The notes: a model not told the origin generated them from the sequence alone. Positions 1 to 21,682 are shown, counted from the stretch's first letter. The stretch is DNA of 24,000 nt from an uncultured Eubacteriales bacterium (GCA_902767315.1 CACXHB010000112.1:1496-25495); one strand, 5' to 3'. A program made the numbers and translations.

Positions 1-1104
1 CTCGTTGAACATCACCCAGCTGAAGATGCAGGGATGGTTGAAATCCCGGTCAAATTCCCGGGGCCATTCCGCGTCGTAGGCCACCCGGGCGGTTTCGTCC
101 GGCTCGCCCCAGAAGCAGGGAATGTCCTGCATGATCAATACGCCCAGTTTGTCCATCCAGTAGAGCTTGCGGGGCTCCTCGCTCTTGATGTGAATGCGGG
201 CCATGTTCAGCCCCAGCCGCTTCAGCCGCCAGGCCTCGTCGTGCATGGACTTGTCGTCGGGATAAGTGAAATGCCCCTGGGGATGGAAGGCCTGATCCAG
301 GGTGCCGTTGATGTAAATGGGCTTGCCGTTCAAAAGAATGCGCCCGTTTTTGGCGGCCACTTCCCGGATGCCAAAGTAGGTTTCCACCCGGTCGTCCCCC
401 AGGATGATTTCTCCCTCGTACAACTCCGGGCATTCGGGAGACCATAGCCGGGTGTCGTCAAAATGCATGGCAATTTCCGCGCCGCCGTTTTCCACCGCGC
501 CGGAAAATTCCTTTCCGTCAAAGACTGCGGTCACCTTCGCGCCGTCGGCGGCGCAGGCCTTCACCCGCAGCGTCACGTCGCCGGAAATCTTCGTGTAAAA
601 CCGGAAGGAATCGATGTATTCCGGCCCGCGGTTTTCCAGCCATACCGTCTGCCAGATGCCCTGAATTTCGCCGTAGCCCTGCTTGCCGTAGGTCTGGTTT
701 TCCTTCTGATCATCCTCGGCCCGCACGACGATCTCGTTTTCGCCGTCCTGCCAGATCTCCGTCACTTCCATCTCGAAGGGATTGTATCCCCCCTGATGAT
801 GGCACAGATGCTTGCCGTTTACATATACGTCGCTGATATAATCCACCGCGCCGAAGCACAAAAACAGCCGGCCGCGCACTGGGAAAGAAACCGTGCGCCG
901 ATACCAGCCCACGCCCTTCACATTTTCCGCCACGCCGGACAGGGGGGAAACCCAGGAAAAGGGCACGGTAATCTGCCGGTCAAAGCCCTCGGGGGCGTCG
1001 GAGCCCACGCCGTCGGGCAGAAGCTTGAATTCCCATTGTCCGTTCAGGTTCAACCAGTCCCCGCGCTGCCGATCCGGGCGGGGAAATTCCATCTTGGGGA
1101 TCAT
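1..1104 (-). CDS. Glycoside hydrolase family 2 (beta-galactosidase/beta-glucuronidase-like), N-terminal 368 aa; the C-terminus lies beyond the left window edge
   Basis: Absent from the ORF track because there is no stop in the window. Hand translation of the reverse strand in the frame ending at 1104 gives MIPKMEFPRPDRQRGDWLNLNGQWEFKLLPDG...VKGVGWYRRTV...DYISDVYVNGKHLCHHQGGYNPFEMEVT...LNGKPIYINGTLDQAFHPQGHFTYPDD...RLKRLGLNMARIHIKSEEPRKLYWMDKLGVLIMQDIP...FNHPCIFSWVMFNE. This shows the GH2 order sugar-binding domain / Ig-like / TIM barrel and the NHP..W...NE acid-base motif. No in-frame stops seen. Alternative start ATG at 1090-1092. Confidence 0.8.
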   Translation of the reverse strand, partial: MIPKMEFPRPDRQRGDWLNLNGQWEFKLLPDGVGSDAPEGFDRQITVPFSWVSPLSGVAENVKGVGWYRRTVSFPVRGRLFLCFGAVDYISDVYVNGKHLCHHQGGYNPFEMEVTEIWQDGENEIVVRAEDDQKENQTYGKQGYGEIQGIWQTVWLENRGPEYIDSFRFYTKISGDVTLRVKACAADGAKVTAVFDGKEFSGAVENGGAEIAMHFDDTRLWSPECPELYEGEIILGDDRVETYFGIREVAAKNGRILLNGKPIYINGTLDQAFHPQGHFTYPDDKSMHDEAWRLKRLGLNMARIHIKSEEPRKLYWMDKLGVLIMQDIPCFWGEPDETARVAYDAEWPREFDRDFNHPCIFSWVMFNE

Positions 1105-1174
1105 TGCCTTCGACCTCACTTTCGTGCAATCATTTTAACATGCCCGGCAGGAAATGGCAATAGGCGGAATTTTC

Positions 1175-1203
1175 TGGATTTTCCCGGCAAAATCTGCTAT
1201 ACT
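1175..1203 (+). promoter_or_regulatory. Possible sigma-70 promoter for the ProX-like gene (-35 TGGATT, 17-nt spacer, -10 TATACT)
   Basis: TATACT at 1198-1203 lies about 35 nt upstream of the ATG at 1237. The -35 match is weak. The site sits in the divergent GH2/ProX intergenic region. Confidence 0.3.
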
Positions 1204-1236
1204 TTTTCTCAATCCCTTCAGAAAGGAGCCTCGCCC

Positions 1237-1728
1237 ATGTGGACCAAACAGGCCGTCTATCGCCTTCTGGAAGAATCCGACGTTCCTTATGAAAAAATCG
1301 AACACCCGGCGGTGTTCAATATGGCGGATCTGAACCAGCTCCATCTGCCTCACCCGGAAGCCGACGCCAAAAACCTCTTCGTGCGGGATGATAAAAAGCG
1401 CAATTATTATCTCATTACCGTCCATGGCGAAAAGCGCGTAGATCTGAAAGCCTTCCGCCAGACGCATCATACCCGCCCCCTGAGCTTTGCCGCCCCGGAG
1501 GAATTGCAGGAAAAACTGGGGCTTGCTCCCGGCGCCGTCACGCCCCTGGGCCTGCTCAACGACGAAACCCGGCAAATCCCCCTGTTTCTGGATTCGGATT
1601 TCGCCCCGGAAGGCCGCCTCATCTGCGTGCACCCCAACGAAAATACCGCCACAGTGCTTTTGCAGGCCCGGGACCTGGTGGCCCTGCTGGAAAAAGCCGG
1701 CCATCCCGTAGAATGGGCCGACCTCTAA
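1237..1728 (+). CDS. YbaK/ProX-family aminoacyl-tRNA editing (prolyl-tRNA synthetase-associated) domain protein, 163 aa
   Basis: This is the last third of track ORF 463..1728. The real start is the ATG at 1237, preceded by GAAAGGAG (1221-1228). Sequence MWTKQAVYRLLEESDVPYEKIEHPAVFNMADL...DAKNLFVRDDKKRNYYLITVHGEKRVDLKAF...LGLAPGAVTPLGLLND...VHPNENTATV matches free-standing ProX/PrdX-type deacylases. The upstream part of the track ORF is antisense to the GH2 gene. Confidence 0.8.
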   Translation: MWTKQAVYRLLEESDVPYEKIEHPAVFNMADLNQLHLPHPEADAKNLFVRDDKKRNYYLITVHGEKRVDLKAFRQTHHTRPLSFAAPEELQEKLGLAPGAVTPLGLLNDETRQIPLFLDSDFAPEGRLICVHPNENTATVLLQARDLVALLEKAGHPVEWADL

Positions 1729-8212: not shown

Positions 8213-10711
8213 TTATGCCGTTTCGATGCCCGCGGCCTTCTGCAGCTTCAGCCGCGCGATGGCCTCTTCCCGCATCCTGTATTTCAGTATCTTGCCCGCC
8301 GCGTTCATGGGGAACCCCGTCACAAAGTCGATGTACCGGGGCACCTTGTGCCGGGCCATGTGCTCCCGCACATATTGCTTCATTTCGTCCGCGGTCATGC
8401 TCTCCCCTTCCTTCAGCACCACGCAGGCCATGATCTCCTCGCCGTACTGCTCGTCCGGCACGCCGATCACCTGCACGTCGCTGACCTTGGGGTGGGTGTA
8501 AATGAATTCCTCAATCTCCTTGGGATAAATGTTCTCGCCGCCCCGGATAATCATGTCCTTCAGCCGGCCGGTAATGCGGAAATTGCCGTCCTCGGTCTTG
8601 CAGGCCAGATCGCCCGTGTGCAGCCAGCCGTCCTTGTCGATGGCCCGCACGGTTTCGTCGGGCATCTTGTAATATCCCTTCATCAGGTTGTATCCCCGGG
8701 CCACGAATTCGCCGATTTCCCCGGTGGGCAGCTCCCTGCCGGTGTCCGGGTCGATAATCCGGCATTCGATTTCCGGCATGGCCCGGCCCACGGTGCCCAC
8801 CCGCACCTCCAGCGGGTCGTCCGTGGAGGACATGGTGCATCCCGGGGAAGCCTCCGTCTGGCCGTATACAATCACGATTTCCGACATGTGCATCTTGTTC
8901 ACCACGTCCCGCATTTTGGAAATGGGGCAGGGAGAACCGGCCATGATGCCCGTGCGCATGCAGGAAAAATCCGTCTTTTCAAAGTCCGGATGCTCCAATA
9001 GCGCCACAAACATGGTGGGCACGCCGTGGAAGCAGGTGATGTGCTCCTGATGAATGCAGGCCAGGGCGGGCTTGGCGGAAAAATAGGGCAGGGGCAGTAT
9101 GGTAGCCCCGTGGGTCATGGCCGCGGTCATGGCCAGCACCATACCAAAGCAGTGGAACATGGGCACCTGAATCATCATCCGGTCCGCGGTGGAAAGATCC
9201 ATCCGGTCGCCGATGCATTTGCCGTTGTTGACCACGTTGTAATGGGTCAGCATCACGCCCTTGGGAAATCCCGTGGTGCCGGAAGTGTACTGCATGTTGC
9301 ATACGTCGTGGGGCGAAACCTGCGCCGCCATGCGCAATACTTCCTGATGGGGCACCGTCCTGCCCCGCTCCAGGGCCTCTTCCCAGGTCACGGCCCCCGC
9401 CTGGCGGAAGCCCACGGTGATGATGTTCCGCAAAAAGGGCAGCCGGTGGCTGTGCAGGAACTGCCCGGGTCGGGTCTCCGCCAATTCCGGACAAAGCTCG
9501 TTCATAATGGCCTGATAATCGCTGTCCTTGTTGGATTTCTCCATAATCAGCGTGTGGGTGTCCGATTGCTTCAGCAGATATTCCGCCTCGTGAATCTTGT
9601 AAGCGGTGTTCATGGTCACCAGCACCGCGCCGATTTTGGTGGTGGCCCAGAAGGCGATGAACCACTGGGGCAGGTTGGTGGCCCAGATGGTCACGTGGCT
9701 GCCCGCCTTCACCCCCAGGGCGATCAGCGCCCGGGCGAAGTCGTCCACGTCGTCCCGGAACTGGGCGTAGGTACGGGTGTAGTTGAGGGTGGTGTATTTA
9801 ATGGCCTGCTGGTCGGGGAATTCCTCCACCATCCGGTCCAGCACCTTGGAAAACGTGCAGTCGATCAGGGCGTCCTTGGTCCATACGTACCGGCCCGTGT
9901 GCCGCCGGTTGAAGTGCAGCGGCTTTTTCAGGGTGCGGGGGCTCTCGAACCGGTTCATGTAATTCACAAAATGGGGGAAGATGATCTCCCTGTCCTGCAA
10001 ATCCTCCATCCACTGGGGTTTCCACACCAGGGAAATGAACCCGTCGTAATTAATGGAAGCCAGCGCGTCCATCATGGCGGGAATGGGCAGCGTGCCCTCG
10101 CCGATAAGGTTGTATACTCCCTCGTCGTCGGAATCCCGCAATTGTACGTGGCGCACATACGCCCCCAGGTTTTTGATGGTCACCGCCGGGGTCTCCCCGT
10201 GGTCCCGCACCGTATGGTGCAAATCCCACGTGGCCGCCAGCTCGTCGCAGGCAAAGTAGTTCATCAGATCCCGCAGCCGCTCGGTGTCCGCGTAAATTCC
10301 CGCGGTTTTGATCAGCACCGTCACCCGGTTCTCCGCCGCCCGGGGCAGAATCCGCCGCAGGCTCTCCCGCACCGCGTCCTCGTTTTCCCCGGATGCGTAT
10401 ACCCCGATGTAGGGCACCCGCAAATCCGCCGCCAGCCGGGTCAATTGCTCCATGGCCCGCACCGCGTCCTCTACCTCGCCGGACAGGTCAATCGAACTGT
10501 CCAGACAGGGAATCTCCAGCTTTTTCTCCGCCAGCAGCCGCACGGTGGAGGAAATGCAATATTGATGAAAGGGCCCGCTTTTGTCGAAAAGGGCCTTCTG
10601 CATGTGGGCGTTGTAGATTTCCACGCCGGAAAAGCGCATTTCTCCGGCCATGCGAATCCATTCTTCCCAGGGCGCGCCCTCCCAGCCCCGGGTGGAAAAG
10701 GAGAGCTTCAT
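8213..10711 (-). CDS. Fusion protein: N-terminal xylose-isomerase-like TIM barrel (sugar phosphate isomerase/epimerase, AP-endonuclease-2 fold, ~270 aa) plus C-terminal AMP-dependent acyl-CoA synthetase (FadD/ACSF2-like, ~560 aa)
   Basis: The N-terminus MKLSFSTRGWEGAPWEEWIRMAGEMRFSGVEIYN...VTVLIKT...WDLHHT...HVQLRDSD...GEGTLPIPAMMDALASINYDGFISLVWKP fits the TIM-barrel family pattern. The C-terminus carries MQYTSGTTGFPKGVMLTHYNV, YGQTEASP, GWLHTGDLACKTEDGNFRITGRLKDMIIRGGENIYPKEIE and AGKILK (adenylate-forming A3/A5/A8/A10 motifs). There is one uninterrupted ORF. The start overlaps the upstream stop (ATGA). Confidence 0.85.
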   Translation of the reverse strand: MKLSFSTRGWEGAPWEEWIRMAGEMRFSGVEIYNAHMQKALFDKSGPFHQYCISSTVRLLAEKKLEIPCLDSSIDLSGEVEDAVRAMEQLTRLAADLRVPYIGVYASGENEDAVRESLRRILPRAAENRVTVLIKTAGIYADTERLRDLMNYFACDELAATWDLHHTVRDHGETPAVTIKNLGAYVRHVQLRDSDDEGVYNLIGEGTLPIPAMMDALASINYDGFISLVWKPQWMEDLQDREIIFPHFVNYMNRFESPRTLKKPLHFNRRHTGRYVWTKDALIDCTFSKVLDRMVEEFPDQQAIKYTTLNYTRTYAQFRDDVDDFARALIALGVKAGSHVTIWATNLPQWFIAFWATTKIGAVLVTMNTAYKIHEAEYLLKQSDTHTLIMEKSNKDSDYQAIMNELCPELAETRPGQFLHSHRLPFLRNIITVGFRQAGAVTWEEALERGRTVPHQEVLRMAAQVSPHDVCNMQYTSGTTGFPKGVMLTHYNVVNNGKCIGDRMDLSTADRMMIQVPMFHCFGMVLAMTAAMTHGATILPLPYFSAKPALACIHQEHITCFHGVPTMFVALLEHPDFEKTDFSCMRTGIMAGSPCPISKMRDVVNKMHMSEIVIVYGQTEASPGCTMSSTDDPLEVRVGTVGRAMPEIECRIIDPDTGRELPTGEIGEFVARGYNLMKGYYKMPDETVRAIDKDGWLHTGDLACKTEDGNFRITGRLKDMIIRGGENIYPKEIEEFIYTHPKVSDVQVIGVPDEQYGEEIMACVVLKEGESMTADEMKQYVREHMARHKVPRYIDFVTGFPMNAAGKILKYRMREEAIARLKLQKAAGIETA

Positions 10712-12132
10712 GCTTCGGCCTCCTCATATACGATTTTGTTCAGCGCGCTGACGTAGGCCCGGATGCTGGCCCCCACCACGTCCGTGGAAATGCCCCGCCC
10801 GGAATACAGCTTGCCCCCGGAGCGCAGCCGCACGATGGTTTCGCCCATGGCCTCCCGGCCCTGGGTCACGGCCTGAATCTGGAAATCGTCCAGTTCGTAG
10901 TGGTGCCCCACAATCTGCTCCACCGCCAGGAACGCCGCGTCGATGGGCCCGTCTCCCAGACACACTCCCTCCAGCTTCGTCTCGCCCTTGTAAAGCACCA
11001 GATGAGCGCTGGCGGAAACGGTGTTGCCGCAGGTCACCAGATACGTGTCCACCCGGTAAGTGGGGGGCACCTGCATGGCCGCGGAGGCCACGATGGTGTC
11101 CAACTCCTTGGCGCTGAGGCTCTCCTTCCGGGCGGCGATGCGCTGGAAGGCCTCGTATACCCGGGCCACGTCCTCTTCGGACAGGTCGTAGCCGATCTTC
11201 TTCACCGCGTCGGCCACGGCGGCGCGGTCGTCGTGGGCGGAAAGCACCACGTCCGCGTGGGCCGCGGCGGACTGCACCCCGCTGTCAAAGGGGGATTTCG
11301 CGTCCCGGCTGGTGCGGCACATCCATTCGATCTGGTCCGTCACCCGCTTCAGTTCCGTGTTGTAAAGGTCGCTGCCCACGCCCATGGCCACGCCCCGGCT
11401 CTGCATCACCGCGGAAAAGTGGTTGATGCTGGTCACGTTGCCTTTGCAGGAAATGACCTTGATCTCCCGGGCCCCGCAGCGCACCGCCGCCGTGGCGCAG
11501 GCCGTGGCCATGTTCATCTCGTCCGAACACATGACCCCCAGCCGCACGCTGTCCATTTCCGGCACCGCGGCCTTGATCTCTTCCAGAAATTGCGTAAATT
11601 CGTCCGGGAACATCAGTCCTGCAGTGTCGCACAGGGTAATCACCGTGGCGCCGGCGGAAATGGCCGTGCGGATGGCCCGGCAGAGGAACTCCCTTTCGCT
11701 GCGGCAGGCATCGTCCGCAATGAATTCCACCTCGCCGCATTTTTCCCGGCATTGGGCGATCAGCCCCGCGATGGTCTCCAGGGTCTTTTCCGGCTTCTTG
11801 TGCCAGAAATATTCCATCTGGGTGGGGCTCATGGGGGCCTCCACCTGCAGCCGGGGATTTACCGCGTTTTTCAGCGCTTCGTAAGTGTCCTCCACGCTGC
11901 CCTCCTCCAGGGTCACGGGCGCGGCGATGGTGGCGTGCTTCACCGCCATGGCGATGGATTTAATCAAAAGGCTGTCGATTTTCCGGCTGCGGATGGGGCT
12001 GACCTCGATGACGCTGACGTTCAGCCGGTCCAGCAGCTTCGCCAGCTCGATTTTCTCCTTAAAGCTCAGGGAAAGCTCCGGGGCCTGGTCGGCAACCTTC
12101 ATGGTAATATCGCTTACGCCAATGTTCTGCAT
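10708..12132 (-). CDS. 2-isopropylmalate/citramalate synthase homologue with a degenerate catalytic site and a conserved C-terminal LeuA allosteric/dimerisation domain (probable pseudoenzyme or sensor)
   Basis: The HMGL-like barrel is alignable to LeuA, but DTTLRDGEQ is replaced by DITMKVADQ, HxH(N/D)D by MCSDE, and GIGERAGN by CKGNVTSI. DTAGL (for DTVGY) is kept. The C-terminus GDGPIDAAFLAVEQIVG...FQIQAVTQGREAMGETIVRLRSGGKLYSGRGISTDVVGASIRAYVSALNKI is a well-conserved LeuA regulatory domain. AGGAGG RBS. Confidence 0.75.
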   Translation of the reverse strand: MQNIGVSDITMKVADQAPELSLSFKEKIELAKLLDRLNVSVIEVSPIRSRKIDSLLIKSIAMAVKHATIAAPVTLEEGSVEDTYEALKNAVNPRLQVEAPMSPTQMEYFWHKKPEKTLETIAGLIAQCREKCGEVEFIADDACRSEREFLCRAIRTAISAGATVITLCDTAGLMFPDEFTQFLEEIKAAVPEMDSVRLGVMCSDEMNMATACATAAVRCGAREIKVISCKGNVTSINHFSAVMQSRGVAMGVGSDLYNTELKRVTDQIEWMCRTSRDAKSPFDSGVQSAAAHADVVLSAHDDRAAVADAVKKIGYDLSEEDVARVYEAFQRIAARKESLSAKELDTIVASAAMQVPPTYRVDTYLVTCGNTVSASAHLVLYKGETKLEGVCLGDGPIDAAFLAVEQIVGHHYELDDFQIQAVTQGREAMGETIVRLRSGGKLYSGRGISTDVVGASIRAYVSALNKIVYEEAEA

Positions 12133-12175: not shown

Positions 12176-13243
12176 TCAAATGCGCAGGGTCCACCCGAAG
12201 GGATCCTCGATCTTGCCCCACTGAATGCCGGTAAGGGTGTCGTACAGCATGTGGGTCACTTCACCGATCTCGCCGCCGTTTACGATGTACGTCCTGTCTT
12301 TGTAAGCCAGCTTGCCGATGGGCGAAATCACCGCGGCGGTGCCGCAGCCCCAGGCCTCTTCCAGGGTGCCGTTTTCCATGGCGGCGGCCAGTTCGTCCAC
12401 GCTCAGCAGGCGCTCTACTACATTGTAGCCCTTGCCGCGCAAAACGTCAATGCAGCTTTTCCGGGTAACGCCGGGCAAAATGGAGCCCGTCAGCGCCGGG
12501 GTCACCACTTCGCCGGAAATTTTGAACATCACGTTCATGGCGCCCACTTCTTCAATGTACTTGCGCTCCACGCCGTCCAGCCACAAAACCTGGCTGTATC
12601 CCTGCCGTTCGGCCCGCTCGCCGGCCCGGTTGGAGGCCGCGTAATTGCCGCCGCACTTGGCGTATCCCGTGCCGCCCCGCACCGCACGCACGTCCTGATC
12701 CTCGATCATGATGCCCACGGGGTTGATGCCTTCCTTATAATAGCTGCCCACCGGGGAAAGAATCACGCAGAAGGCGGCGTGCTCCACCGCGTGCACCCCC
12801 AGCGTCTCGTCCGTTCCGAAGGTGAAGGGCCGAATGTACAGGCTGGTGCCTTCCAGATGGGGCACCCAGTCCTCCTCCATCTTCACCAGCGTGGTCACCA
12901 CCTGCAAAAAGTCCTCCTCCGGCAGCTGGGGCAGACACAGCCGCTCCGCGGAATTCATCATTCGCCGGGCGTTTTCCCAGGGGCGGAACAGCTGCACGCC
13001 GCCGTCCTTTCTGCGGTAAGCCTTCAGTCCTTCGAAAATCTCCGCGCCGTAGTGAAGACAGGTGGAGGCCGGATGCATGGAGAAGTTGCCGAAGGGGACG
13101 ATCCGGGCGTCGTGCCAGCCCTTTTCCCTGTCCCAGTCCACCATCGCCATGTAATCGGTAAAAATCTTTCCAAAGCCCAGCTTGGTCTCGTCGGCGGGCT
13201 TTTCCTTCAGCTGCGCGCATTTTTCCACACGGATGTCCAACAT
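12176..13243 (-). CDS. ilvE: Branched-chain amino acid aminotransferase (fold-type IV PLP enzyme, ~355-aa type)
   Basis: KLGFGKIFTDYM, HYGAEIFEGLKAYR, GTGYAKCGGNYAAS, LTGSILPGVTR and GCGTAAVISPI motifs. I chose the start at 13243 (MLDIRVEK) because GGGAGGAG lies 7 nt upstream. The track ORF begins 24 nt earlier, at 13267. Confidence 0.9.
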   Translation of the reverse strand: MLDIRVEKCAQLKEKPADETKLGFGKIFTDYMAMVDWDREKGWHDARIVPFGNFSMHPASTCLHYGAEIFEGLKAYRRKDGGVQLFRPWENARRMMNSAERLCLPQLPEEDFLQVVTTLVKMEEDWVPHLEGTSLYIRPFTFGTDETLGVHAVEHAAFCVILSPVGSYYKEGINPVGIMIEDQDVRAVRGGTGYAKCGGNYAASNRAGERAERQGYSQVLWLDGVERKYIEEVGAMNVMFKISGEVVTPALTGSILPGVTRKSCIDVLRGKGYNVVERLLSVDELAAAMENGTLEEAWGCGTAAVISPIGKLAYKDRTYIVNGGEIGEVTHMLYDTLTGIQWGKIEDPFGWTLRI

Positions 13244-13280
13244 TTCTTTTCTCCTCCCTGCGTTCAAATCCCTGGGTTCT

Positions 13281-13814
13281 TTATTCGAAGTTCCGGCCCA
13301 TTTCCAGGGCCTTCCGGTTGAAATCGTACATCTCCGGGTGCTTCACGGAAACCACCTTTTTCAGCGCCGCCTCCACGTTTTCCGGCTCGTACTGCCCCAG
13401 TCGGGCCAGCATCGCCCCGGAAAGAATCATGTTGGCCAGGGTGGTCACCCCGTTTTCCCCGGCCATGCGGGTGGCGGGCACATATACCGCGTGCACGTCC
13501 TGCCGGCGCACCTTCCGCTCAATCAGCGTGGAATCCACAAAAATCCATCCGCCGGGGTTCACCGCGTCCTCGTATTTGTCCAGCGACGGCAGATTCATCA
13601 CCATCAAAACGTCCGGATGATCCACAATGGGGGAAGAAACCGGCTCGTCCCCGATGACCACCGAACAGTTGGCGGTGCCGCCCCGCATTTCCGGGCCGTA
13701 GGAGGGCAGCCAGGTCACCTGCTTTCCCTCCATCATGCCCTTGTTCACCAGAAACTTGCCCGCGAAGAGGATGCCCTGTCCGCCGAATCCGGCGATGAGA
13801 AAACGAGTGGTCAT
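13281..13814 (-). CDS. 2-oxoacid:ferredoxin oxidoreductase, gamma subunit
   Basis: [22 protein letters not shown]...[20 protein letters not shown] is the typical gamma-subunit signature. The start ATG at 13812-13814 overlaps the beta stop (ATGA). The longer track ORF start at 13889 lies inside the beta gene. Confidence 0.85.
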
Positions 13815-14566
13815 TTTGCCTCCTCCTTTGCGCTTCTGTCCTTGTAAACTCCCAGGGGATAATAGGGAATCATCTTGTCCTGCACCCATTCCAGCGCCTT
13901 TTCCGGCGTCATGCCCCAGTTGGTGGGACAGGCGGACAACACCTCCACCAGAGAAAATCCCTTCCCCGCCAGCTGGTTTTCAAATGCCTTTTTGATGGCC
14001 TTTTTCGCGGCCTTCACGTTTTTGACGTTGTTCACCGCCACCCGTTCCAGATATTCCGGCCCGTCCAGGGTGGAAAGCATTTCGCAGATCTTCACCGGAT
14101 ACCCGCAGGCCTTCACGTCCCTTCCGTAGGGCGAGGTCTGGGTCACCTGCCCGGGCAGGGAGGTGGGGGCCATCTGCCCGCCGGTCATGCCGTAAATGGC
14201 GTTGTTGATGAAAATAATGGTGATGTTCTCGTTCCGGGCCGCGGCGTGCACCGTCTCCGCCGTGCCGATGGAGGCCAGGTCTCCGTCTCCCTGATAGGTA
14301 AACACCACGTTGTGCTCCGGGTCGGCCCGCTTCAGTCCCGTGGCCACCGCGGGGGCCCGTCCGTGGGCCGCCTCCACCATGTCGCAGGCGAAATAATCAT
14401 ACGCCATCACCGCGCAGCCCACCGGCGCCACGCCGATGGTGCGTCCCTCGATGCCCAGTTCGTCGATCACTTCCGCCACCAGCCGGTGCACAATGCCGTG
14501 GGTGCACCCGGGGCAGTAATGCAGCGGTACGTCCAAAAGAGCGTGGGGTCGTTCAAATACCATCAT
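13811..14566 (-). CDS. 2-oxoacid:ferredoxin oxidoreductase, beta (TPP-binding) subunit
   Basis: [19 protein letters not shown], and the TPP motif [14 protein letters not shown]...[14 protein letters not shown]. The start overlaps the alpha stop. Confidence 0.9.
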
Positions 14567-15627
14567 TTTTCGGCGCCTCCCTCCATGTTTTCGATTCCTC
14601 TGAGCACCTCTTCCGGGGAAGGAATGATGCCGCCCGCCCGATGAATCAGCTTCACCGGCCGTTTGCAGGAAATGGCCAGCCGCACGTCGTCAATCATCTG
14701 GCCCATGTTCAGTTCCACCGTGGCAAAGGATACGCACTTCTCCGCTGCGGCCGCCAGGGCCTTTTCCGGGAAGGGCCACAGGGTAATGGGCCGAATCATG
14801 CCCGCCCGAATGCCCTTTTTCCGGGCCTCGTCAATGGCCGCCTTGGTCACCCGCGCCGCAATGCCGAAGGCCACCAGGCAGTATTCCGCGTCCTCCATGC
14901 GGTATTCCTCCCACATGGCCTCCTTTTCCTGAATCCGCCCGTACCGCTGGAACCGCTCAAAGTTCTGCCGCTCCAGCTCCGCCGGGGCCAGGGAAAGGGA
15001 ATTGACGATGTTGTGCTTGCGGCCCATGCCCGTGCCGGTAACGGCCCAGGACTTGTCGAATTCCTTTTTCTCGATTTTCGGAATTTCCACCGGCTCCATC
15101 ATCTGGCCCATGGTGCCGTCCGCCAGTATCATGGCCGTCATCCGGTATTCGTCCGCCAGGTCAAAGCCCTTCACCGTCAAATCGGCCATTTCCTGCACGC
15201 TGGCCGGGGCCAGCACGATCATCCGGAAATCCCCGTGTCCGCCGCCCTTGGTGGCCTGGAAGTAGTCCGATTGAGAGGGCTGAATGCCCCCCAGCCCCGG
15301 GCCGCCCCGCTGCACGTTCACCACCAGCGCCGGCAGATCCGCCCCCGCCAGATAGGAAAGCCCCTCGCTCTTCAGGGAAATTCCCGGGCTGGAGGAAGAG
15401 GTCATCACCCGATGCCCGGTGGAAGAGACGCCGTAAACCATGTTGATGGCGGCGATTTCACTTTCCGCCTGCAGAAACACGCCGCCGATTTTGGGCATGC
15501 GTTTGGCCATGTAGGCCGCCACTTCCGTCTGCGGCGTAATGGGATATCCGAAATAATGCCGGCATCCGGCCATGATGGCCGCCTCGGCAATGGCTTCGTT
15601 GCCCTTCATCAGTACCTTGTCCGCCAT
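14563..15627 (-). CDS. vorB: 2-oxoacid:ferredoxin oxidoreductase, alpha subunit (VorB-like; substrate not assignable from sequence alone)
   Basis: [36 protein letters not shown]...[15 protein letters not shown]... is the typical four-subunit OFOR alpha N-terminus. The vorB label rests on resemblance to proteins I recall being annotated that way, plus the BCAT context. Confidence 0.8.
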
Positions 15628-15645: not shown

Positions 15646-15852
15646 TTATCGCTCCACCGTAATCACGCAATCGGGGCACATGGTGGCGCAGAAGGCGCAG
15701 CCCACGCAGGCCTCGGGGTTCGTGATCTCGGCGGGATGGTGTCCTTTTTGATTGATGCGGTCCCGTGCGATGCGAATGAGCTTTTTGGGGCACGCGCCTA
15801 CGCACAGTCCGCAGCCCTTACAGCGGTCCACCTGAAACGTGATCTTTGCCAT
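15646..15852 (-). CDS. 2x[4Fe-4S] ferredoxin (OFOR delta subunit), 68 aa
   Basis: Two CxxCxxCxxxCP motifs: CKGCGLCVGACP and CVGCAFCATMCP. It lies immediately upstream of the alpha subunit. Confidence 0.85.
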   Translation of the reverse strand: MAKITFQVDRCKGCGLCVGACPKKLIRIARDRINQKGHHPAEITNPEACVGCAFCATMCPDCVITVER

Positions 15853-15903: not shown

Positions 15904-16566
15904 TTATCGTATCTTGTCCTGCAGCCGCAGGGGGAAAAGGTTTTCGATCTTCCCTTCCAGATAGGGAATCAGTTCCGCCTTTGCGGTGGTCATCTTCAGC
16001 GGCAGCCCCGCCCTGCGGCAGATTTCCCGGGCGTATCCGTCGGAAGAAAGCACGTCCCGGGGGGCGGTGTCGTCTCCAATGTTGGAATTGTTCACCACGC
16101 CGGTAAAGGGCATCCCCGCCGCCGCCTGAATTTCCGCCATCACCTCCAGGGCGCTGTCCGCGTCCCGGGTCAGGGGGCGAAAGCAGTTCACCACCATCAG
16201 CATCTCCCAGTCTCCTTCCGCCATCAGCCCTTCCCGCCATCGGCCCAGGGCCAGGGCCCCCCGGTCGTCGCCGCCCACGTCCACCACGGCGGAAAGGCCG
16301 ATATCGTCGGTAATGGCGTATACCTCGTCGGGCAGGGCGGGCAAATCCACGTTGGAACCCGCAAAGGGCGAGGCGATCAGCCGAATGCCGTCCCGCTCCA
16401 GCTCCTCCCGGGAATCCTCCGTGCGGAAATAGGGGTTCACAATGTCAATGTCCGCAATGGCCACCCGGGGCCGGGTCTTTTTTAAATGATGGGCCACGTT
16501 CACGGCGATGTTGGTTTTGCCGCTGCCGTAATGGCCGCTGAAAATCACAATGCGCTTGAAATCCAT
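15904..16566 (-). CDS. P-loop NTPase of the MinD/ParA/CooC (SIMIBI) type, 220 aa; first gene of the T-box operon
   Basis: MDFKRIVIFSGHYGSGKTNIAVN carries Walker A GxxGSGKT right at the N-terminus, followed by VAIADIDIVNPYF and a Walker-B-like AVVDVGGDD. The start at 16566 is preceded by GAAGGAGG. The track ORF start at 16707 would run through the T-box terminator hairpin. Confidence 0.7.
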   Translation of the reverse strand: MDFKRIVIFSGHYGSGKTNIAVNVAHHLKKTRPRVAIADIDIVNPYFRTEDSREELERDGIRLIASPFAGSNVDLPALPDEVYAITDDIGLSAVVDVGGDDRGALALGRWREGLMAEGDWEMLMVVNCFRPLTRDADSALEVMAEIQAAAGMPFTGVVNNSNIGDDTAPRDVLSSDGYAREICRRAGLPLKMTTAKAELIPYLEGKIENLFPLRLQDKIR

Positions 16567-16587: not shown

Positions 16588-16885
16588 ATGAAAAAACACA
16601 CTCGTCTCAAAGAAATGAGATTCTTTGAGACGAGTGTGATCAAAACACCCGCGGTACCACTCAAATTGCGGTCTGTGAAAAAACCGCCCCTCGTCGGGCT
16701 CTGACAAGCCCTATGCCTTGACGCAGCAGTCACGGGAAGGTTCTACTGGCCCCCTCGGGCGTTCTTCCTTCCGGCTCGGGAAATTCAGATGTCCGCCCTG
16801 CGCCGCGTTTCGTGGCTCGCACCCACCGCCACTTCTCTGAAAACGGGCCTTCGCCGGGGACATTTTCCCTCATTGCCTTTGTTGT
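16588..16885 (-). promoter_or_regulatory. T-box riboswitch leader 1 (tRNA-sensing transcription attenuator)
   Basis: Read on the minus strand: K-turn AAUGA...GAG; AG bulge CAGAGAA; distal loop GGUGGGUGCGA; AGUAG; T-box AAUUUGAGUGGUACCGCGGG (plus coordinates 16648-16662). UUUGAG can pair with CUCAAA of the terminator 5' arm, forming the antiterminator. The terminator is CACACUCGUCUCAAAGA-loop-UCUUUGAGACGAGUGUG followed by UUUUUU (16591-16638). Confidence 0.9.
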
Positions 16886-16890
16886 GGCCT

Positions 16891-16919
16891 ATTCTATCTC
16901 ATTTCCTTTGCGCTGTCAA
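16891..16919 (-). promoter_or_regulatory. Sigma-70 promoter of T-box leader 1 (-35 TTGACA, 17 nt, -10 TAGAAT)
   Basis: The minus strand reads TTGACAgcgcaaaggaaatgagaTAGAAT. The -35 is a perfect consensus match, the spacer is 17 nt, and the -10 matches TATAAT at 5 of 6 positions. Confidence 0.8.
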
Positions 16920-16992
16920 CGATGAAATCGTGGCGGAATCCGAAATTTTCCGTCATTTCCGGGAAAACTTTCGTCTCCCGCCCCGGTTTTTT

Positions 16993-19254
16993 TTACAGCT
17001 TGTTGCGCTGAATCTTGCCGCTGACGGTCTTGGGCAATTCGTCCTTGAACACCACGATGCGGGGATATTTGTAAGGCGCGGTGTGCTCCTTGACGTAGGT
17101 CTGAATCTCCTTTTTCAATTCCTCCGTGCCCTGGGTGCCCTTTGTCAGCACGATGCTGGCCTTCACCACCTGGCCGCGCACCTCGTCCGGCGCGGCGGAT
17201 ACGCCGCATTCCAGCACGTAGGGCAGTTCCATAATGACGCTCTCGATTTCGAAGGGCCCAATCCGGTATCCGGAGGATTTGATCACGTCGTCCACCCGGC
17301 CCACGTACCAGTAGAAGCCGTCCTCGTCCATCCAGGCCACGTCGCCGGTGTGATACCATCCGTCGTGCCATACCTCCCGGGTCTTCTCCTCGTCCCGGTA
17401 ATATCCCTTAAACAGCCCGCAGGGTACCTTTTCGTCCGTGCGGATGCAGATTTCGCCGGAAACGCCCGCGCCCACGATTTCTCCGTCGGGCCCCAGCAGA
17501 TGAATATCGTACAGGGGCACCGGCTTGCCCATGGCCCCCACCTTGTGGGAATCTCCCATGAGGTTGGCGATGGAAAGGGTGGTCTCCGTCTGGCCGAAGC
17601 CCTCCATGATCCGCAGCCCCGTCAGCTTCTCGAATTGCCGGAATACCTCCGGGTTCATGGCCTCGCCGGCGGTGGTGGCCCGCTGGACGGAGGAGAAGTC
17701 GTACTGGCTCAGGTCCTGCTTGATCATCATCCGATACATGGTCGGCGGCGCGCAGAAGGTGGTGATGTGATACTTGGCGAACAGGGGCAGAATGTCCGCC
17801 GCGTCGAACCGGTCGAAGTCGTAGGTGAATACTCCGCCCTCGCACAGCCATTGCCCGTACAGCTTGCCCCACAGGGCCTTGCCCCATCCGGTGTCGGAAA
17901 TGGTGAAGTGCAGCCCGTCCCGGTCCACCCCGTGCCACCAGCGGGCGGTGATGTAATGCCCCAGGGGATATTTGTACGAATGGGCCGCGATCTTGGGATA
18001 CCCGGTGGTGCCGCTGGTGAAGAACATCAGCATTGTGTCGTCGCCGCAGGGGGCGTCCTCCGGCCGGTCGTATTTCCGGGTGAACAGTACGCTCTCCCCG
18101 TCGTAATCGTGCCAGCCCTCCCTGCTGCCGCCCACGGCGATTTTCACCTTCAGTTCGGGACAGCTCGCCGCCGCCAGATCCACCTGATGGGCGGTGTCCC
18201 CGTCGCAGGTGCACAATATGGCGCTGACCCCCGCGGACTGGAACCGGTATTCGAAGTCGTGGGCCTGCAGCTGATTGGTGGCGGGAATGGCGATGGCCCC
18301 CAGCTTGTGCAGCCCCAGAATCGCCGGCCAGAATTCCCAGTGCCGCTTCAGCACCAGCATCACCCGGTCGCCCTTTTTCACGCCCAGGGATTTAAAGTAA
18401 TTGGCCGCCTGGGCGGAAAGCCGCTTCATGTCCTTGAAGGTGAATTTCCGCTCCTGCTTGTGCTTGTCCAGATGCAGCATGGCCAGCTTGTCCGGGTATT
18501 TGTCCGCCAGCGCGTCCACCACGTCGAAGGCGAAGTTGAACTGATCTTCCCCGGTAAACTCGATGCGCTTCAGGGTTCCGTCCTCGCCTACCCCCGCGTG
18601 CACAAACTTTTCGCACACCAGATCCTCGGCCTTGCTGGCCATCACCAGGCTGTCCCGAATCTCCGCCTCGGCCACTTCCTCCCCCGGCAGCACCACCGCC
18701 AGGAACACGCAGTCCTGCCCGTCCACGGCGATCATCCCGTGGGGCGTGGAGGAATCATAGAAAATGCTGTCTCCTTCGTTCAGCAGCTCCACATGGTCGC
18801 CCACCTGCACCTTCAGCGTGCCGGAGAAAATCAGGTCGAATTCCTGGCCGGAATGGGTGGTCATGTGAATAGGCCGGTGCTGCAATTCCGGCAGATAGTC
18901 GTATTTTACCCAATAGGGCTCGGCCATCTTCCCCCGGAACATGGGGGCCAGGTGCTGAATCTGAATGCCCCGCTCCCGGGCGGTGGTCACGCCCCGGCCC
19001 TTGCGGGTCACGGTGTAACTGGAAAGGTGCGCGCTGTATCCCTCCAACAGGTCGGTAATCTCAATGCCGAAGGCCAGGGCGCATTTGTGAATGAACGTAA
19101 AGGGCAGATCCACCGCGCCGGTTTCATATGCCGCGTACGTCTCCGGGCTCACCTGGGTCTTTTCCGCCATCTCGGCCTCGGTCAGCCCCATAATTTCGCG
19201 CATCTCCCGAATGCGCAGCGCGATTTCCATCAGCGGATTTTGAGAAGTTTGCAT
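16993..19254 (-). CDS. Fusion protein: XRE-family HTH + cupin domain (~190 aa) plus medium-chain-type AMP-dependent acyl-CoA synthetase (ACSM/MacS-like)
   Basis: N-terminus: MEIALRIREMREIMGLTEAEMAEKTQVSPETYAAYETG (HTH_3-like), then HSGQEFDLIFSGTLKVQVGDHVELLNEGDSIFYDSSTPHGM (cupin). C-terminus: FNFAFDVVDALADKYPDKLAMLH, MLMFFTSGTTGYPK, GFGQTET, GWYHTGDVAWMDEDGFYWYVGRVDDVIKSSGYRIGPFEIES and SGKIQR. The start at 19254 (MQTSQNPL) follows GGGAGGG. The track start at 19362 lies inside the T-box. Confidence 0.85.
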   Translation of the reverse strand: MQTSQNPLMEIALRIREMREIMGLTEAEMAEKTQVSPETYAAYETGAVDLPFTFIHKCALAFGIEITDLLEGYSAHLSSYTVTRKGRGVTTARERGIQIQHLAPMFRGKMAEPYWVKYDYLPELQHRPIHMTTHSGQEFDLIFSGTLKVQVGDHVELLNEGDSIFYDSSTPHGMIAVDGQDCVFLAVVLPGEEVAEAEIRDSLVMASKAEDLVCEKFVHAGVGEDGTLKRIEFTGEDQFNFAFDVVDALADKYPDKLAMLHLDKHKQERKFTFKDMKRLSAQAANYFKSLGVKKGDRVMLVLKRHWEFWPAILGLHKLGAIAIPATNQLQAHDFEYRFQSAGVSAILCTCDGDTAHQVDLAAASCPELKVKIAVGGSREGWHDYDGESVLFTRKYDRPEDAPCGDDTMLMFFTSGTTGYPKIAAHSYKYPLGHYITARWWHGVDRDGLHFTISDTGWGKALWGKLYGQWLCEGGVFTYDFDRFDAADILPLFAKYHITTFCAPPTMYRMMIKQDLSQYDFSSVQRATTAGEAMNPEVFRQFEKLTGLRIMEGFGQTETTLSIANLMGDSHKVGAMGKPVPLYDIHLLGPDGEIVGAGVSGEICIRTDEKVPCGLFKGYYRDEEKTREVWHDGWYHTGDVAWMDEDGFYWYVGRVDDVIKSSGYRIGPFEIESVIMELPYVLECGVSAAPDEVRGQVVKASIVLTKGTQGTEELKKEIQTYVKEHTAPYKYPRIVVFKDELPKTVSGKIQRNKL

Positions 19255-19297
19255 GTCTGATTTCCCTCCCTGTTTTTTTGAACCTTGTTTTGCGGTA

Positions 19298-19586
19298 TGA
19301 AAAAAACCCGTCCCAAAGCGTTTTGCTTTGAGACGGGTGAAAACATTCTCCCGCGGTACCACTCAAATTGCGGTCTATAAAAAACCGCCCCTCGTCGGGC
19401 TCCAACAAGCCCTATGCCTTGACGCAGCAATCACGTAAGTCCCTACTCGGTTCCCCTTTGAGGCCTTCAACTCGGAAGTGATGGGTCTGATGGATTTCGA
19501 TCCGCCGGTTCACACCAACCACCGGCTCTCTGCAGCACGATCTCCGACCGCCTTCGTCATCGTCTTTGATGTCGTATTCGGTTGTA
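19298..19586 (-). promoter_or_regulatory. T-box riboswitch leader 2
   Basis: Read on the minus strand: K-turn GAUGAC-GAAG...CUUC-CGAG; AG bulge CAGAGAG; distal loop GGUUGGUGUGAA; AGUAGGG; T-box AAUUUGAGUGGUACCGCGGG (plus 19350-19364). The terminator is ACCCGUCUCAAAGC-aaaac-GCUUUGGGACGGGU followed by UUUUUUU (19300-19338). The best specifier guess is AUC followed by A, just 5' of the CUUC lower-stem strand. Confidence 0.9.
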
Positions 19587-19591
19587 AATAT

Positions 19592-19620
19592 ATCTTAGCA
19601 CCCGCCGCCGGTTCTGTCAA
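19592..19620 (-). promoter_or_regulatory. Sigma-70 promoter of T-box leader 2 (-35 TTGACA, 17 nt, -10 TAAGAT)
   Basis: The minus strand reads TTGACAgaaccggcggcgggtgcTAAGAT, with a perfect -35 and a 17-nt spacer. Confidence 0.75.
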
Positions 19621-19720
19621 CGCCCTCTTCCGTTAATTTCCCCGGTCATTTCTCGGGCGAATTGCTCCCGTTCCCGAACGTTCCCCTTTTTCCCGCGATG
19701 CACCCCCGTCCCCTGCAATC

Positions 19721-19747
19721 AAAAGACCGCCCCTTTTCGGAGCGGCC
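19721..19747 (-). terminator. Intrinsic terminator after the substrate-binding protein gene
   Basis: Minus strand: GGCCGCUCC-gaaaa-GGGGCGGUC (9 bp, including 2 G-U pairs) followed by UUUUGAUU, about 20 nt after the stop at 19766. Confidence 0.65.
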
Positions 19748-19765
19748 TTTCGTTTTTCATTTTTT

Positions 19766-21682
19766 TTACTGCGCGTCCGCGTCGAACCAGTATCCGTCGC
19801 CGCGGCTGGAGCCGTTGGCGCCAAAGTCCCAACCGGCGCCGAAGGTGTCCGCGTTGTGCACGTAGTTTTTAATCACCACAATGCCGGGCAGCCGGCGGCC
19901 GATGCCGATGGCGTACAGGCCGTCTTTCCAGATCTGGATGACTTCCTTGATCTCCGCGTCGCGGGCCGCGTCGTCGGTTTCCACCACGATCTGCGCGCCC
20001 AGTTCCTTCAGGCGGGCCATTTCGGGGGTGGGCTCGAAGGCGTGGTCGCCGGACTTGATGAAGATGCCGGGCATGCAGCGGTTGCCCCAGTTGTAGGAAG
20101 CGTAGCCGGTCCAGGTGTCCACGGAACCGGTGGTCACCGCCAGGAAGCCGTTGTCGCCGCTGCCGGTAAGGGCGGTGATGTCAAATTCGTTGCCCTCGGT
20201 GCGCTCGCCCCACAGGGAAGGCTCCACGATGGAGGCGTTGATGTTCAATTTCAGGTTCTCGCGCCATTCGGAGGCCACCATTTCGGCCACCTCGCCCCAC
20301 TGCACGTCGTAATTGGGCACCAGAATCACCAGGTCGAATTCCTGGCCGTCGGCGGTCATGCGCCAGCCGTTGTCGTCGTACTGGGTCATGCCCATCTCGT
20401 CCAGCATCTTGTTGGCGGTTTCCGGGTCAAACTGGGTGTACTGCTTGGTCCACTCCTCGTCGTAATAGGGAGAATTCTCCAGGAAGGAGGACTGGGCGAT
20501 TTCGGAAACGAAGGGCCCAATGGCGTAGAAGGTGGAAATGATAGTGGGCCGGTCCATGCCCAGCGACAGGGCGCGGCGGAATTCCACGTTGCCCAGATAG
20601 GGGGCCTTCACCGGATCCACGGAGGTGATGTTGAAGTGGAAGTTCAGCGCGCCGGGCTCGTTGTGCTCCACGGTGGTCAGCCGGTAGTTCATCTCGTCCG
20701 CGTACTGAGCAAACAGCGGATAGTTGGAGAAGGATTCGGACAGACCCGCGGCCTGCACGTCCACTTCGCCGGCGATGATCTTCATGTTCATCAGGTCGGT
20801 GGATTCCACAATGGTAATCACCGCGTTGTCGATGTAGGGCAGCTGGTTGCCTTCCTGGTCGACGCAGCAGTAATAGGGATTGCGCTCGTAGAGATAGGTG
20901 TTGGTGGTGGCGGGGTCGGTGGTCATGACCCAGGGGCCCAGCACGGGCAGATCCTTATTGGTCTGCACGTTGGTCTTGTCCTGCATCAGGTTCTTCCAGT
21001 CGTCGAAGCTTTCCTCGGCCAGCTTCGCGGTCATTTCCTCTTCGGTGAGGTAGGAAGGATGGAACTGCTTCAGGTAATGGGCGGGATATACAAACCGGGA
21101 ATTGCCGTCCTTGGCCCAGAAGGTCAGATACAGGGGCTTGGGGGTCTCGAAGGTGAAGGTGAAGGTCCAGTCGTCCACCTTGTCCAGGGTGCAGTCCGCG
21201 TAATAGGTGTCGGAAGGGGTGTATTCCGTGTTCTTCAGAATGTCGTTCCACCAGAACTCCACGTCTTCCATGGTCACCGGCTCGCCGTCGGACCACTTCA
21301 GCCCTTCGCGCAGTTTGAAGGTAAACACGGTGTATTCGTCGTTGTGCTCGTAGCTTTCCAGCCACGTGGGGATGATGGTCTGGTTGTCCCGGTCGTAAAT
21401 CAGGCCGTTGTGATCCAGATAACCGGTCATGTGAGAACGGGCGTGGTTGTAGGTGCCCTGGGGCGTAGCCTGACGCCAGGTGCCGCCGTAAATACCCACC
21501 TCGGGGTTCACCAGTACCTGGGGATTTTTCGGCAGCCTCTCCTCCACCGGAGGCAGCTCGCCCGCATTGACCTTTTCCGTCAGCACGGGAGATTCGGCGT
21601 AGGTTCCTTCGGCGGAAACCAGTACCGGGCAAAGAGCCAGTACCATCGCCAGCGCCAAAAGGGTCGAAAGCAGCTTCTTCAT
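19766..21682 (-). CDS. Extracellular solute-binding protein, ABC transporter family 5 (peptide/oligosaccharide type), 638 aa
   Basis: Signal peptide MKKLLSTLLALAMVLALCPVLVSAEG. The body (LPKNPQVLVNPEVGIYGGTW..., KLREGLKWSDGEPVT, ERNPYYCCVD..., FRRALSLGMDRPTII) fits SBP_bac_5 architecture. The start at 21682 follows GAAGGAGAGG; the track start at 21763 is upstream of that RBS. Confidence 0.8.
   Translation of the reverse strand: MKKLLSTLLALAMVLALCPVLVSAEGTYAESPVLTEKVNAGELPPVEERLPKNPQVLVNPEVGIYGGTWRQATPQGTYNHARSHMTGYLDHNGLIYDRDNQTIIPTWLESYEHNDEYTVFTFKLREGLKWSDGEPVTMEDVEFWWNDILKNTEYTPSDTYYADCTLDKVDDWTFTFTFETPKPLYLTFWAKDGNSRFVYPAHYLKQFHPSYLTEEEMTAKLAEESFDDWKNLMQDKTNVQTNKDLPVLGPWVMTTDPATTNTYLYERNPYYCCVDQEGNQLPYIDNAVITIVESTDLMNMKIIAGEVDVQAAGLSESFSNYPLFAQYADEMNYRLTTVEHNEPGALNFHFNITSVDPVKAPYLGNVEFRRALSLGMDRPTIISTFYAIGPFVSEIAQSSFLENSPYYDEEWTKQYTQFDPETANKMLDEMGMTQYDDNGWRMTADGQEFDLVILVPNYDVQWGEVAEMVASEWRENLKLNINASIVEPSLWGERTEGNEFDITALTGSGDNGFLAVTTGSVDTWTGYASYNWGNRCMPGIFIKSGDHAFEPTPEMARLKELGAQIVVETDDAARDAEIKEVIQIWKDGLYAIGIGRRLPGIVVIKNYVHNADTFGAGWDFGANGSSRGDGYWFDADAQ

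Follow-up and report, generated by a model that had tools for sequence, protein, structure and literature searches.

An AUC-specifier T-box leader precedes an HTH-cupin::acyl-CoA synthetase fusion gene linked to oxidoreductase and aminotransferase genes in uncultured Clostridia

Why should an RNA switch that reads the charging of a tRNA stand ahead of a gene for a fatty-acid-activating enzyme, and why should that enzyme carry at its N-terminus what looks like a transcriptional regulator? Both questions are raised by a 24,000-nucleotide (nt) stretch of DNA from an uncultured Eubacteriales bacterium (GCA_902767315.1, CACXHB010000112.1:1496-25495; the window hereafter), in which a T-box leader precedes a gene that fuses an XRE-type helix-turn-helix (HTH) domain and a cupin to an AMP-forming acyl-coenzyme A (acyl-CoA) synthetase. 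We consider it probable that an isoleucine-specific transcriptional T-box attenuator controls here the first enzyme of a pathway that salvages branched short-chain fatty acids for the synthesis of branched-chain amino acids, and that the conserved HTH-cupin module acts on the enzyme to which it is attached.

The T-box leader and its specifier

The fusion gene, its leader and the operon downstream of it all lie on the minus strand of the window. Residue numbers are counted from the ATG start, and the features of the leader and the gene are as follows.

19592-19620, minus strand: sigma-70-type promoter, with TTGACA at 19620-19615, a 17-nt spacer, TAAGAT at 19597-19592 and a TG before the -10 box (10 of 12 matches)
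19326-19569, minus strand: T-box leader with Stem I, Stem II, IIA/B, Stem III and antiterminator (Rfam RF00230)
19480-19482, minus strand: specifier codon AUC (Ile) in a reduced specifier loop, 5' GC (AC in orthologues) and 3' C-AUC-A
19358-19361, minus strand: T-box bulge UGGU, pairing with the tRNA 3' end ACCA (discriminator A73); sequence ATTTGAGTGGTACCGCG
19299-19338, minus strand: intrinsic terminator, a 14-base-pair stem (19338-19306) followed by U7
16993-19254, minus strand: coding sequence (FUS1) of the HTH-cupin::acyl-CoA synthetase fusion, 753 residues, with ATG at 19254 and ribosome-binding site GGGAGGG at 19264-19270
19039-19233, minus strand: XRE-type five-helix HTH-like domain, residues 8-72 (Pfam HTH_3/HTH_19; AlphaFold helices at residues 7-71; net charge -6)
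18679-18993, minus strand: cupin barrel, residues 88-192 (Pfam Cupin_2; invariant H134, E138 and H172)
16996-18549, minus strand: MacS/MbcS-like AMP-forming acyl-CoA synthetase domain, residues 236-753 (match to PDB 3ETC)

The alignment of the leader spans the Rfam model from end to end (219 positions) and scores 90.7 bits, with E 2.4e-20 in a search of 801 nt and 7e-19 over the whole window; the parts of Stem I, namely the K-turn base, the specifier loop with its codon, the AG bulge and the distal loop, align fully to model positions 1-100. The 5' arm of the terminator is at the same time the 3' arm of the antiterminator, so that the two structures are mutually exclusive in the window leader. 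An earlier reading of the window made from its sequence alone (the sequence-only reading) had proposed a T-box leader with its own TTGACA/TAAGAT promoter, and the full-length alignment, the promoter and the terminator bear this out.

Relatives were collected with one genome per species, which gave 406 genomes with relatives, and the best 80 loci of these were examined. Every one of the 80 encodes the complete fusion, at 69-81% identity, and their sources are metagenome-assembled Clostridia of the gut and rumen (Acutalibacteraceae, Oscillospiraceae and Christensenellales-like). TTGACA and TGnTAnAAT are present in all orthologous leaders. The T-box sequence AAUUUGAGUGGUACCGCG occurs in the window and in 75 of the 76 species loci with enough upstream sequence to be counted, and AUUUGAGUGGUACCGCG is located 85-215 nt 5' of the start codon in 75 of these 76 loci. 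The window leader is a genuine T-box that has been conserved together with the fusion gene.

The specifier was aligned across 71 leaders (70 orthologous loci and the window). The triplet AUC is invariant in 71 of 71, with the flanking bases and the adjacent helix varying around it; on its 3' side the specifier loop has Y-AUC-N, immediately 5' of the CUUC strand of the basal helix. The helix beside the specifier covaries (GGUC/GACC, GGAA/UUCC, GGCC/GGCC and others). Among 49 distinct Stem I sequences, compensatory changes are seen in 14 of the 20 pairs considered, and 94.2% of the pair cells are paired as compared with 79.7% in shuffled alignments, a value that none of 500 shuffles reaches; the signal is lost when the partner columns are slid. 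The AUC specifier makes tRNA-Ile the likely effector, which the sequence-only reading had listed among its candidates. The discriminator base A73 is a feature of tRNA-Ile, with which the UGGU bulge is compatible.

In the proposed mechanism, transcription would begin at the promoter at 19620-19592. With charged tRNA-Ile the leader would form the terminator (19338-19306) and transcription would stop; with uncharged tRNA-Ile the anticodon would pair with AUC and the free ACCA end with UGGU, the antiterminator would form and the gene would be transcribed.

The nearest relatives of the window fusion gene (81% identity) have a leader of another structural subclass (L001:3990-4290, L002:5690-5980 and L003:3050-3340), in which AUC opens a 6-nt bulge (AUCAAA or AUCAGA) that resembles the second T-box of the window described below. 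This leader type suggests leader swapping between neighbouring T-boxes. In one lineage, an MFS transporter gene stands immediately upstream of the Ile T-box (L083:5360-6499 and L084:597-1736), and its product could be an acid importer. A weak match to a Thr leader at 19716-19805 was rejected as the terminator of the upstream solute-binding-protein gene, and ARAGORN found no tRNA gene in the window.

The fusion enzyme and its linked genes

The longest open reading frame of the fusion gene (16993-19362) begins at a GTG. The true start is most likely the ATG at 19254, because it is preceded by the ribosome-binding site GGGAGGG and gives the same 753-residue length as database proteins that are 100% identical, which are found in many public assemblies of uncultured Clostridia. 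The HTH, cupin and acyl-CoA synthetase domains named in the sequence-only reading were all recovered by Pfam profiles above their curated cut-offs: HTH_19/HTH_3 at 50-109, Cupin_2 at 168-224, AMP-binding at 286-655 (E 8.8e-64) and AMP-binding_C at 705-783 (E 2.6e-20), in coordinates that count from the GTG and from which 36 must be subtracted. AlphaFold models the protein (predicted local distance difference test score 82 overall, 87.5 for a model of residues 1-195) in three parts connected by flexible linkers, namely an XRE-type five-helix bundle at 7-71, a cupin barrel at 89-189 and the synthetase. On the opposite strand an 823-residue open reading frame runs along the fusion gene (16789-19260, plus strand); it is a shadow reading frame typical of G+C-rich DNA and no gene.

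The best solved relative of the catalytic part is MacS from Methanosarcina acetivorans (PDB 3ETC; E 1e-188, 53% identity), whereas entries for acetyl-CoA synthetase (Acs) are much weaker matches (E of about 1e-40 to 1e-75). The alternate pocket tryptophan of MacS (W259) is kept, with TARWWHG in the fusion aligned to TAKYWQN in MacS, and the position of the Acs tryptophan is a glycine within the motif GFGQTET; the roles of these pocket residues are described for MacS and Acs (PMC10455477). The enzyme is thus set apart from a plain acetyl-CoA synthetase both by its match scores and by a tryptophan pattern of the MacS type. MacS prefers 2-methylbutyrate (PMC10455477), as the sequence-only reading had stated when it placed the catalytic part near MacS, and MbcS is selective for 2-methylbutyrate and isobutyrate (PMC10026030). 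By analogy with these relatives, 2-methylbutyrate is most likely the substrate of the fusion enzyme.

What such an enzyme may be for is suggested by the genes that follow it. No terminator was found between the fusion gene and the second T-box-controlled operon, which comprises the following features.

16891-16919, minus strand: second promoter, TTGACA, 17 nt and TAGAAT (11 of 12 matches)
16597-16882, minus strand: second T-box leader (16623-16882; Rfam 63.7 bits, E 6e-12) and its terminator (16638-16597)
15904-16560, minus strand: P-loop ATPase (Pfam)
15646-15852, minus strand: ferredoxin (Pfam)
14563-15627, minus strand: VorA (Pfam/NCBIfam)
13811-14566, minus strand: VorB (Pfam/NCBIfam)
13281-13889, minus strand: VorC (Pfam/NCBIfam)
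12176-13267, minus strand: IlvE (NCBIfam, 479.8 bits; cut-off 307)
10708-12132, minus strand: LeuA-like gene (HMGL-like and LeuA_dimer; below the NCBIfam LeuA cut-offs)
8213-10711, minus strand: TIM-barrel::acyl-CoA ligase fusion with a xylose-isomerase-like TIM barrel, at the end of the same operon

The three Vor subunits form a 2-oxoisovalerate-type 2-oxoacid:ferredoxin oxidoreductase, the alpha subunit of which reaches 540.7 bits in NCBIfam (VorB type; cut-off 399), and the synteny of the pathway genes is kept in most of the best 80 loci. A ligase, an oxidoreductase and an aminotransferase, as predicted from these genes, make up the classical anaerobic route from acid through acyl-CoA and 2-oxoacid to amino acid. 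The C-terminal MacS/MbcS-like domain would convert 2-methylbutyrate, ATP and CoA to 2-methylbutyryl-CoA, the downstream oxidoreductase would carboxylate this reductively to 3-methyl-2-oxopentanoate, and IlvE would transaminate the latter to isoleucine. That anaerobes can make isoleucine from 2-methylbutyrate by reductive carboxylation is accepted (PMC2812497). The sequence-only reading had regarded the target as lying outside the usual T-box repertoire. With VOR and IlvE directly downstream and a second T-box between, the gene context points instead to an entry enzyme of amino-acid biosynthesis. That the leader controls one gene, as was also proposed, holds in the narrow sense, with the reservation that transcription meets no terminator before the next T-box-controlled operon.

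The same genes might serve another end, either the supply of branched acyl-CoA primers for membrane fatty-acid synthesis, as with S. aureus MbcS, or the breakdown of branched-chain amino acids. A lipid-primer role is known for MbcS (PMC10026030), the NCBIfam family that the fusion enzyme matches best, and oxidoreductases of this type run oxidatively in many fermenters. There would, however, be no reason for uncharged tRNA-Ile to induce the supply of lipid primers or the breakdown of isoleucine, and an energy-yielding route would be ill served by an AMP-forming ligase as its final step; the co-located aminotransferase and three amino-acid-specific T-boxes (Ile, Val and Leu) argue for synthesis. 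We regard these uses as the least probable of the alternatives considered here. Since the leader would be induced on amino-acid starvation, through uncharged tRNA-Ile, the synthetic direction of the salvage route is favoured over breakdown.

The wider family repeats this arrangement. The usual order is an Ile (AUC) T-box, fusion paralog 1, a Val (GUA) T-box, fusion paralog 2, the ATPase, ferredoxin, VorABC and often IlvE. Paralog 2 is 60-67% identical to paralog 1 and has the same architecture, and its GUA specifier was read in 40 leaders. The second paralog follows immediately after the first in L003, L005, L009 and about 40 other loci (for example L009:8400-10905), and it is missing at this locus in the window, L081 and L082. 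In the window and L081 the oxidoreductase operon has a separate T-box in front of it; in L082 the gap ahead of that operon is about 180 nt and a T-box motif was not found there.

The second promoter of the window, which the sequence-only reading had placed at 16891-16919, is real and serves the second T-box. The specifier bulge of this T-box has 5 nt, CUGAA at 16788-16784, with the general form C-U-G-(A/U)-A, and CUG is the only triplet invariant among five orthologous second-T-box leaders. It probably reads Leu, an assignment that we hold with moderate confidence. The readings GAA (Glu) and UGA (by homology with the Val-type GUA) were rejected, as only CUG is invariant in the five leaders, and Glu is disfavoured also by the UGGU bulge, which fits A73 tRNAs such as those for Leu and not tRNA-Glu. 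The Leu reading matches the LeuA-like gene and the TIM-barrel ligase, a Leu-linked pair that now stands at the operon end in the clade of the window. In at least 13 other loci the pair lies behind its own Leu (CUC) T-box (for example L055:600-4740), and in L008 and L039 it lies behind a CUG T-box. Because Ile (AUC), Val (GUA) and Leu T-boxes precede separate genes, each branched-chain amino acid appears to have its own T-box switch and its own ligase.

Two further genes deserve mention. The P-loop ATPase is CbiA/MinD-like, always stands first before ferredoxin and VorABC, and shows a weak match to an iron-sulfur cluster carrier (MrpORP); it may be a maturation factor. At 463-1728 (plus strand) the window encodes a 421-residue protein with an uncharacterised N-terminal part of 280 residues and an aminoacyl-tRNA editing domain of the YbaK/ProX type.

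The HTH-cupin module

The N-terminal module is nearly as well conserved as the catalytic part, and H134, E138 and H172 of the cupin are invariant in both paralogs and in a third lineage at 43% identity. The module is therefore predicted to be functional. Its ancestry is mixed, between XRE/cupin regulators and HppE-type enzymes. A profile search of solved structures placed the HTH_3-cupin regulator 1Y9Q first (E 2e-8), followed by many XRE repressors and then by HppE over its full length (E 1.7e-4), whereas Foldseek ranked HppE first (E 3e-14), followed by 1Y9Q, HEPD, MPnS and Psf4. The invariant triad aligns residue by residue with the 2-His-1-Glu iron ligands H138, E142 and H180 of HppE. Of the matches listed for protein searches with the module, one made with a single sequence and one with a profile, all were fragments belonging to this fusion family.

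The sequence-only reading had suggested that this module might be a DNA-binding regulator and the whole protein a trigger enzyme. Put fully, the HTH-cupin would be an active XRE-type DNA-binding regulator, and the protein would not only activate its acid but also, on binding a ligand in the cupin or its own acyl-adenylate, switch promoters on or off, for instance its own or the one ahead of the oxidoreductase operon. BirA is an enzyme-regulator of this kind. The HTH_3/HTH_19 and Cupin_2 matches above cut-off, the many true XRE regulators headed by 1Y9Q among the solved structures and the purifying selection on the module all agree with such a role, and paralog-specific residues in the module could reflect different operators. 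Judged from the sequence, the charge of the domain points the other way. The net charge of the HTH-like domain lies between -4 and -9 in 124 of 124 family members, compared with +1 over the same span for a true HTH of the PbsX family; the recognition-helix region has a mean charge of -3, and at the usual base-contacting positions (37-39, 41 and 42) the residues are acidic or vary. A search of 71 Ile-type and 40 Val-type promoters for a conserved operator (5-mer inverted repeats with gaps of 0-14 nt, and shared 7-mers), which did not extend to other parts of the genomes, found none; all that it recovered was the -35 box, A/T tracts and the ends of coding sequences lying upstream. The same two-domain fold moreover occurs in enzymes that are not known as DNA binders, and fold and triad are no worse a fit to HppE than to an HTH_3 regulator. 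The module probably no longer binds DNA, and we judge the trigger-enzyme proposal unlikely.

The likeness to HppE raises in turn the possibility that the protein is bifunctional and that its module is a second catalytic domain, a mononuclear metal enzyme of the HppE kind. Its substrate would be the acid, the acyl-CoA or the 2-oxoacid, which it might, for instance, epimerise or isomerise. The Foldseek order and the aligned 2-His-1-Glu triad are what would be expected of such a domain, and among relatives of the catalytic part there are fusions with further small enzyme domains (GNAT and VOC/glyoxalase). The proposed pathway has, however, no need of an extra chemical step. The Val paralog, whose acid would be the achiral isobutyrate, keeps the module, so that a stereochemical role cannot be general; strict gut anaerobes are unlikely to support HppE-type chemistry, which requires O2 or H2O2, and the sequence similarity to HppE is weak (the profile match given above). 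A second catalytic function is accordingly rated as quite improbable.

More probably than binding DNA, the module acts on the enzyme itself, as a metal-dependent part that senses a ligand or serves assembly. Twelve positions are at least 90% conserved within each paralog and differ between the Ile and Val types, and 11 of the 12 fall in the N-terminal module, so that the paralogs appear to differ mainly there. The sole difference in the catalytic domain is Gly458 (Ile type) versus Ala (Val type), in the DTGWGK motif, at a position that, going by acetyl-CoA synthetase structures, we take to line the acyl pocket. The clustering of paralog-specific residues in the module favours a ligand- or partner-specific sensing role over a generic scaffold. 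As a tentative extension, which we think rather less likely than its opposite, the module may be a former XRE/cupin regulator that now serves as a metal-dependent sensor, specific for an amino acid or 2-oxoacid, and gates the attached synthetase, in which case the Ile and Val enzymes would be told apart mainly by their sensor modules and not by their active sites. If so, each branched-chain amino acid would be under double control, by tRNA charging at the RNA level and by free end-product at the protein level.

A count of how often the architecture occurs had been proposed. Among the matches listed it is present in all 120 clusters, and it occurs in at least 80 species, with a second paralog in 43. 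A library clustered at 50% identity contains just three clusters with the full-length fusion, and the nearest unfused relatives there are 56% identical, some with other fusions (GNAT, VOC). The fusion is thus abundant within its clade, where two paralogs are usual, yet phylogenetically narrow. Three unfused close relatives of the catalytic domain (P0127, P0138 and P0128) carry a C-terminal GNAT acetyltransferase or VOC/glyoxalase domain, the latter being the fold of methylmalonyl-CoA epimerase.

Weight of the evidence and comparison with known systems

Several observations weigh against the isoleucine-controlled salvage route. The window leader falls 2.3 bits short of the Rfam gathering score (93 bits), for which reason a default Rfam scan of the window gave no matches and the T-boxes emerge only with E-value thresholds; several orthologous leaders of the same gene do lie at or above that score (93.2-107.5 bits). 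The specifier loop is reduced, to 2 nt on its 5' side and 5 nt on its 3' side, and the base 3' of AUC is variable, without the usual conserved purine. The substrate is assigned only through relatives because the protein, at 416.9 bits for MbcS, lies far below the equivalog cut-off of 850, and the acyl-CoA could alternatively feed branched-chain lipid synthesis, as for MbcS. The relatives are metagenome-assembled genomes throughout, with no isolate among them. The HTH, finally, is clearly homologous to DNA-binding XRE domains in the profile search of solved structures.

Isobutyrate, 2-methylbutyrate and isovalerate are abundant in the gut and rumen and are long-known growth factors for anaerobes. 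Which genes serve their use, and how these are regulated, is poorly mapped, and the locus offers a compact, testable module: a ligase per acid, a shared ferredoxin oxidoreductase and an aminotransferase, each behind a T-box for the matching tRNA, in at least 80 species of uncultured Clostridia. If the assignments hold, the known T-box regulon would extend to fatty-acid activation, and the locus would supply markers to predict which gut bacteria recycle branched acids into amino acids. The T-box regulon surveys consulted list no fatty-acid-activating ligase as a target (PMC3766115, PMC2494555), and in the literature covered, which did not include one key T-box survey, no description was found of an acyl-CoA synthetase, or of this oxidoreductase, under the control of a T-box, nor of an HTH-cupin-synthetase fusion. 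The domain fusion appears to be undescribed, and its regulator-like part seems to have changed its job.

Bifunctional enzyme-regulators with documented DNA binding are represented by BirA, whose enzyme is adenylate-forming, and PutA. The window protein resembles them in joining an HTH-type domain and an enzyme in one polypeptide and differs in that its sequence features argue against DNA binding. XRE-HTH and cupin regulators, such as those of the PuuR type and 1Y9Q, share with the module its domain order, its size and a profile match over both domains; the window module, in contrast, is fused to an enzyme, its HTH is strongly acidic and no operator was found in the 71 and 40 promoters. HppE is the best structural match and shares the 2-His-1-Glu positions and a similar helix, PET..A.(W/Y)E.G; in HppE and the related HTH-like/cupin iron enzymes the HTH-like domain is not known to bind DNA. 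It differs by its weak sequence similarity and by setting, since the window module belongs to an anaerobe and is fused to an acyl-CoA ligase, and catalysis by the module is only conjectural.

MacS (3ETC, M. acetivorans) and S. aureus MbcS have the same AMP-forming medium/short-chain acyl-CoA synthetase fold as the window protein, which is 53% identical to MacS and keeps its pocket tryptophan; both prefer 2-methylbutyrate, and MbcS also accepts isobutyrate. In contrast to them, the window protein adds an N-terminal HTH-cupin extension of 235 residues and scores below the MbcS cut-off, and its gene is controlled by a T-box and linked to a ferredoxin oxidoreductase and an aminotransferase.

Class I transcriptional T-boxes (RF00230), such as the Bacillus ileS and ilv-leu leaders, are alike in their K-turn, Stem I with specifier, AG bulge, distal loop, Stem II, IIA/B, Stem III and UGGN bulge, in the competing antiterminator and terminator, in the AUC specifier for Ile and in a target that serves amino-acid supply. 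The window copy departs from them in its reduced specifier loop (2 nt and 5 nt), in the variable base in place of a purine after the codon, in a score barely under the Rfam gathering score and, above all, in its target, which would be the fatty-acid-activating ligase of a salvage route.

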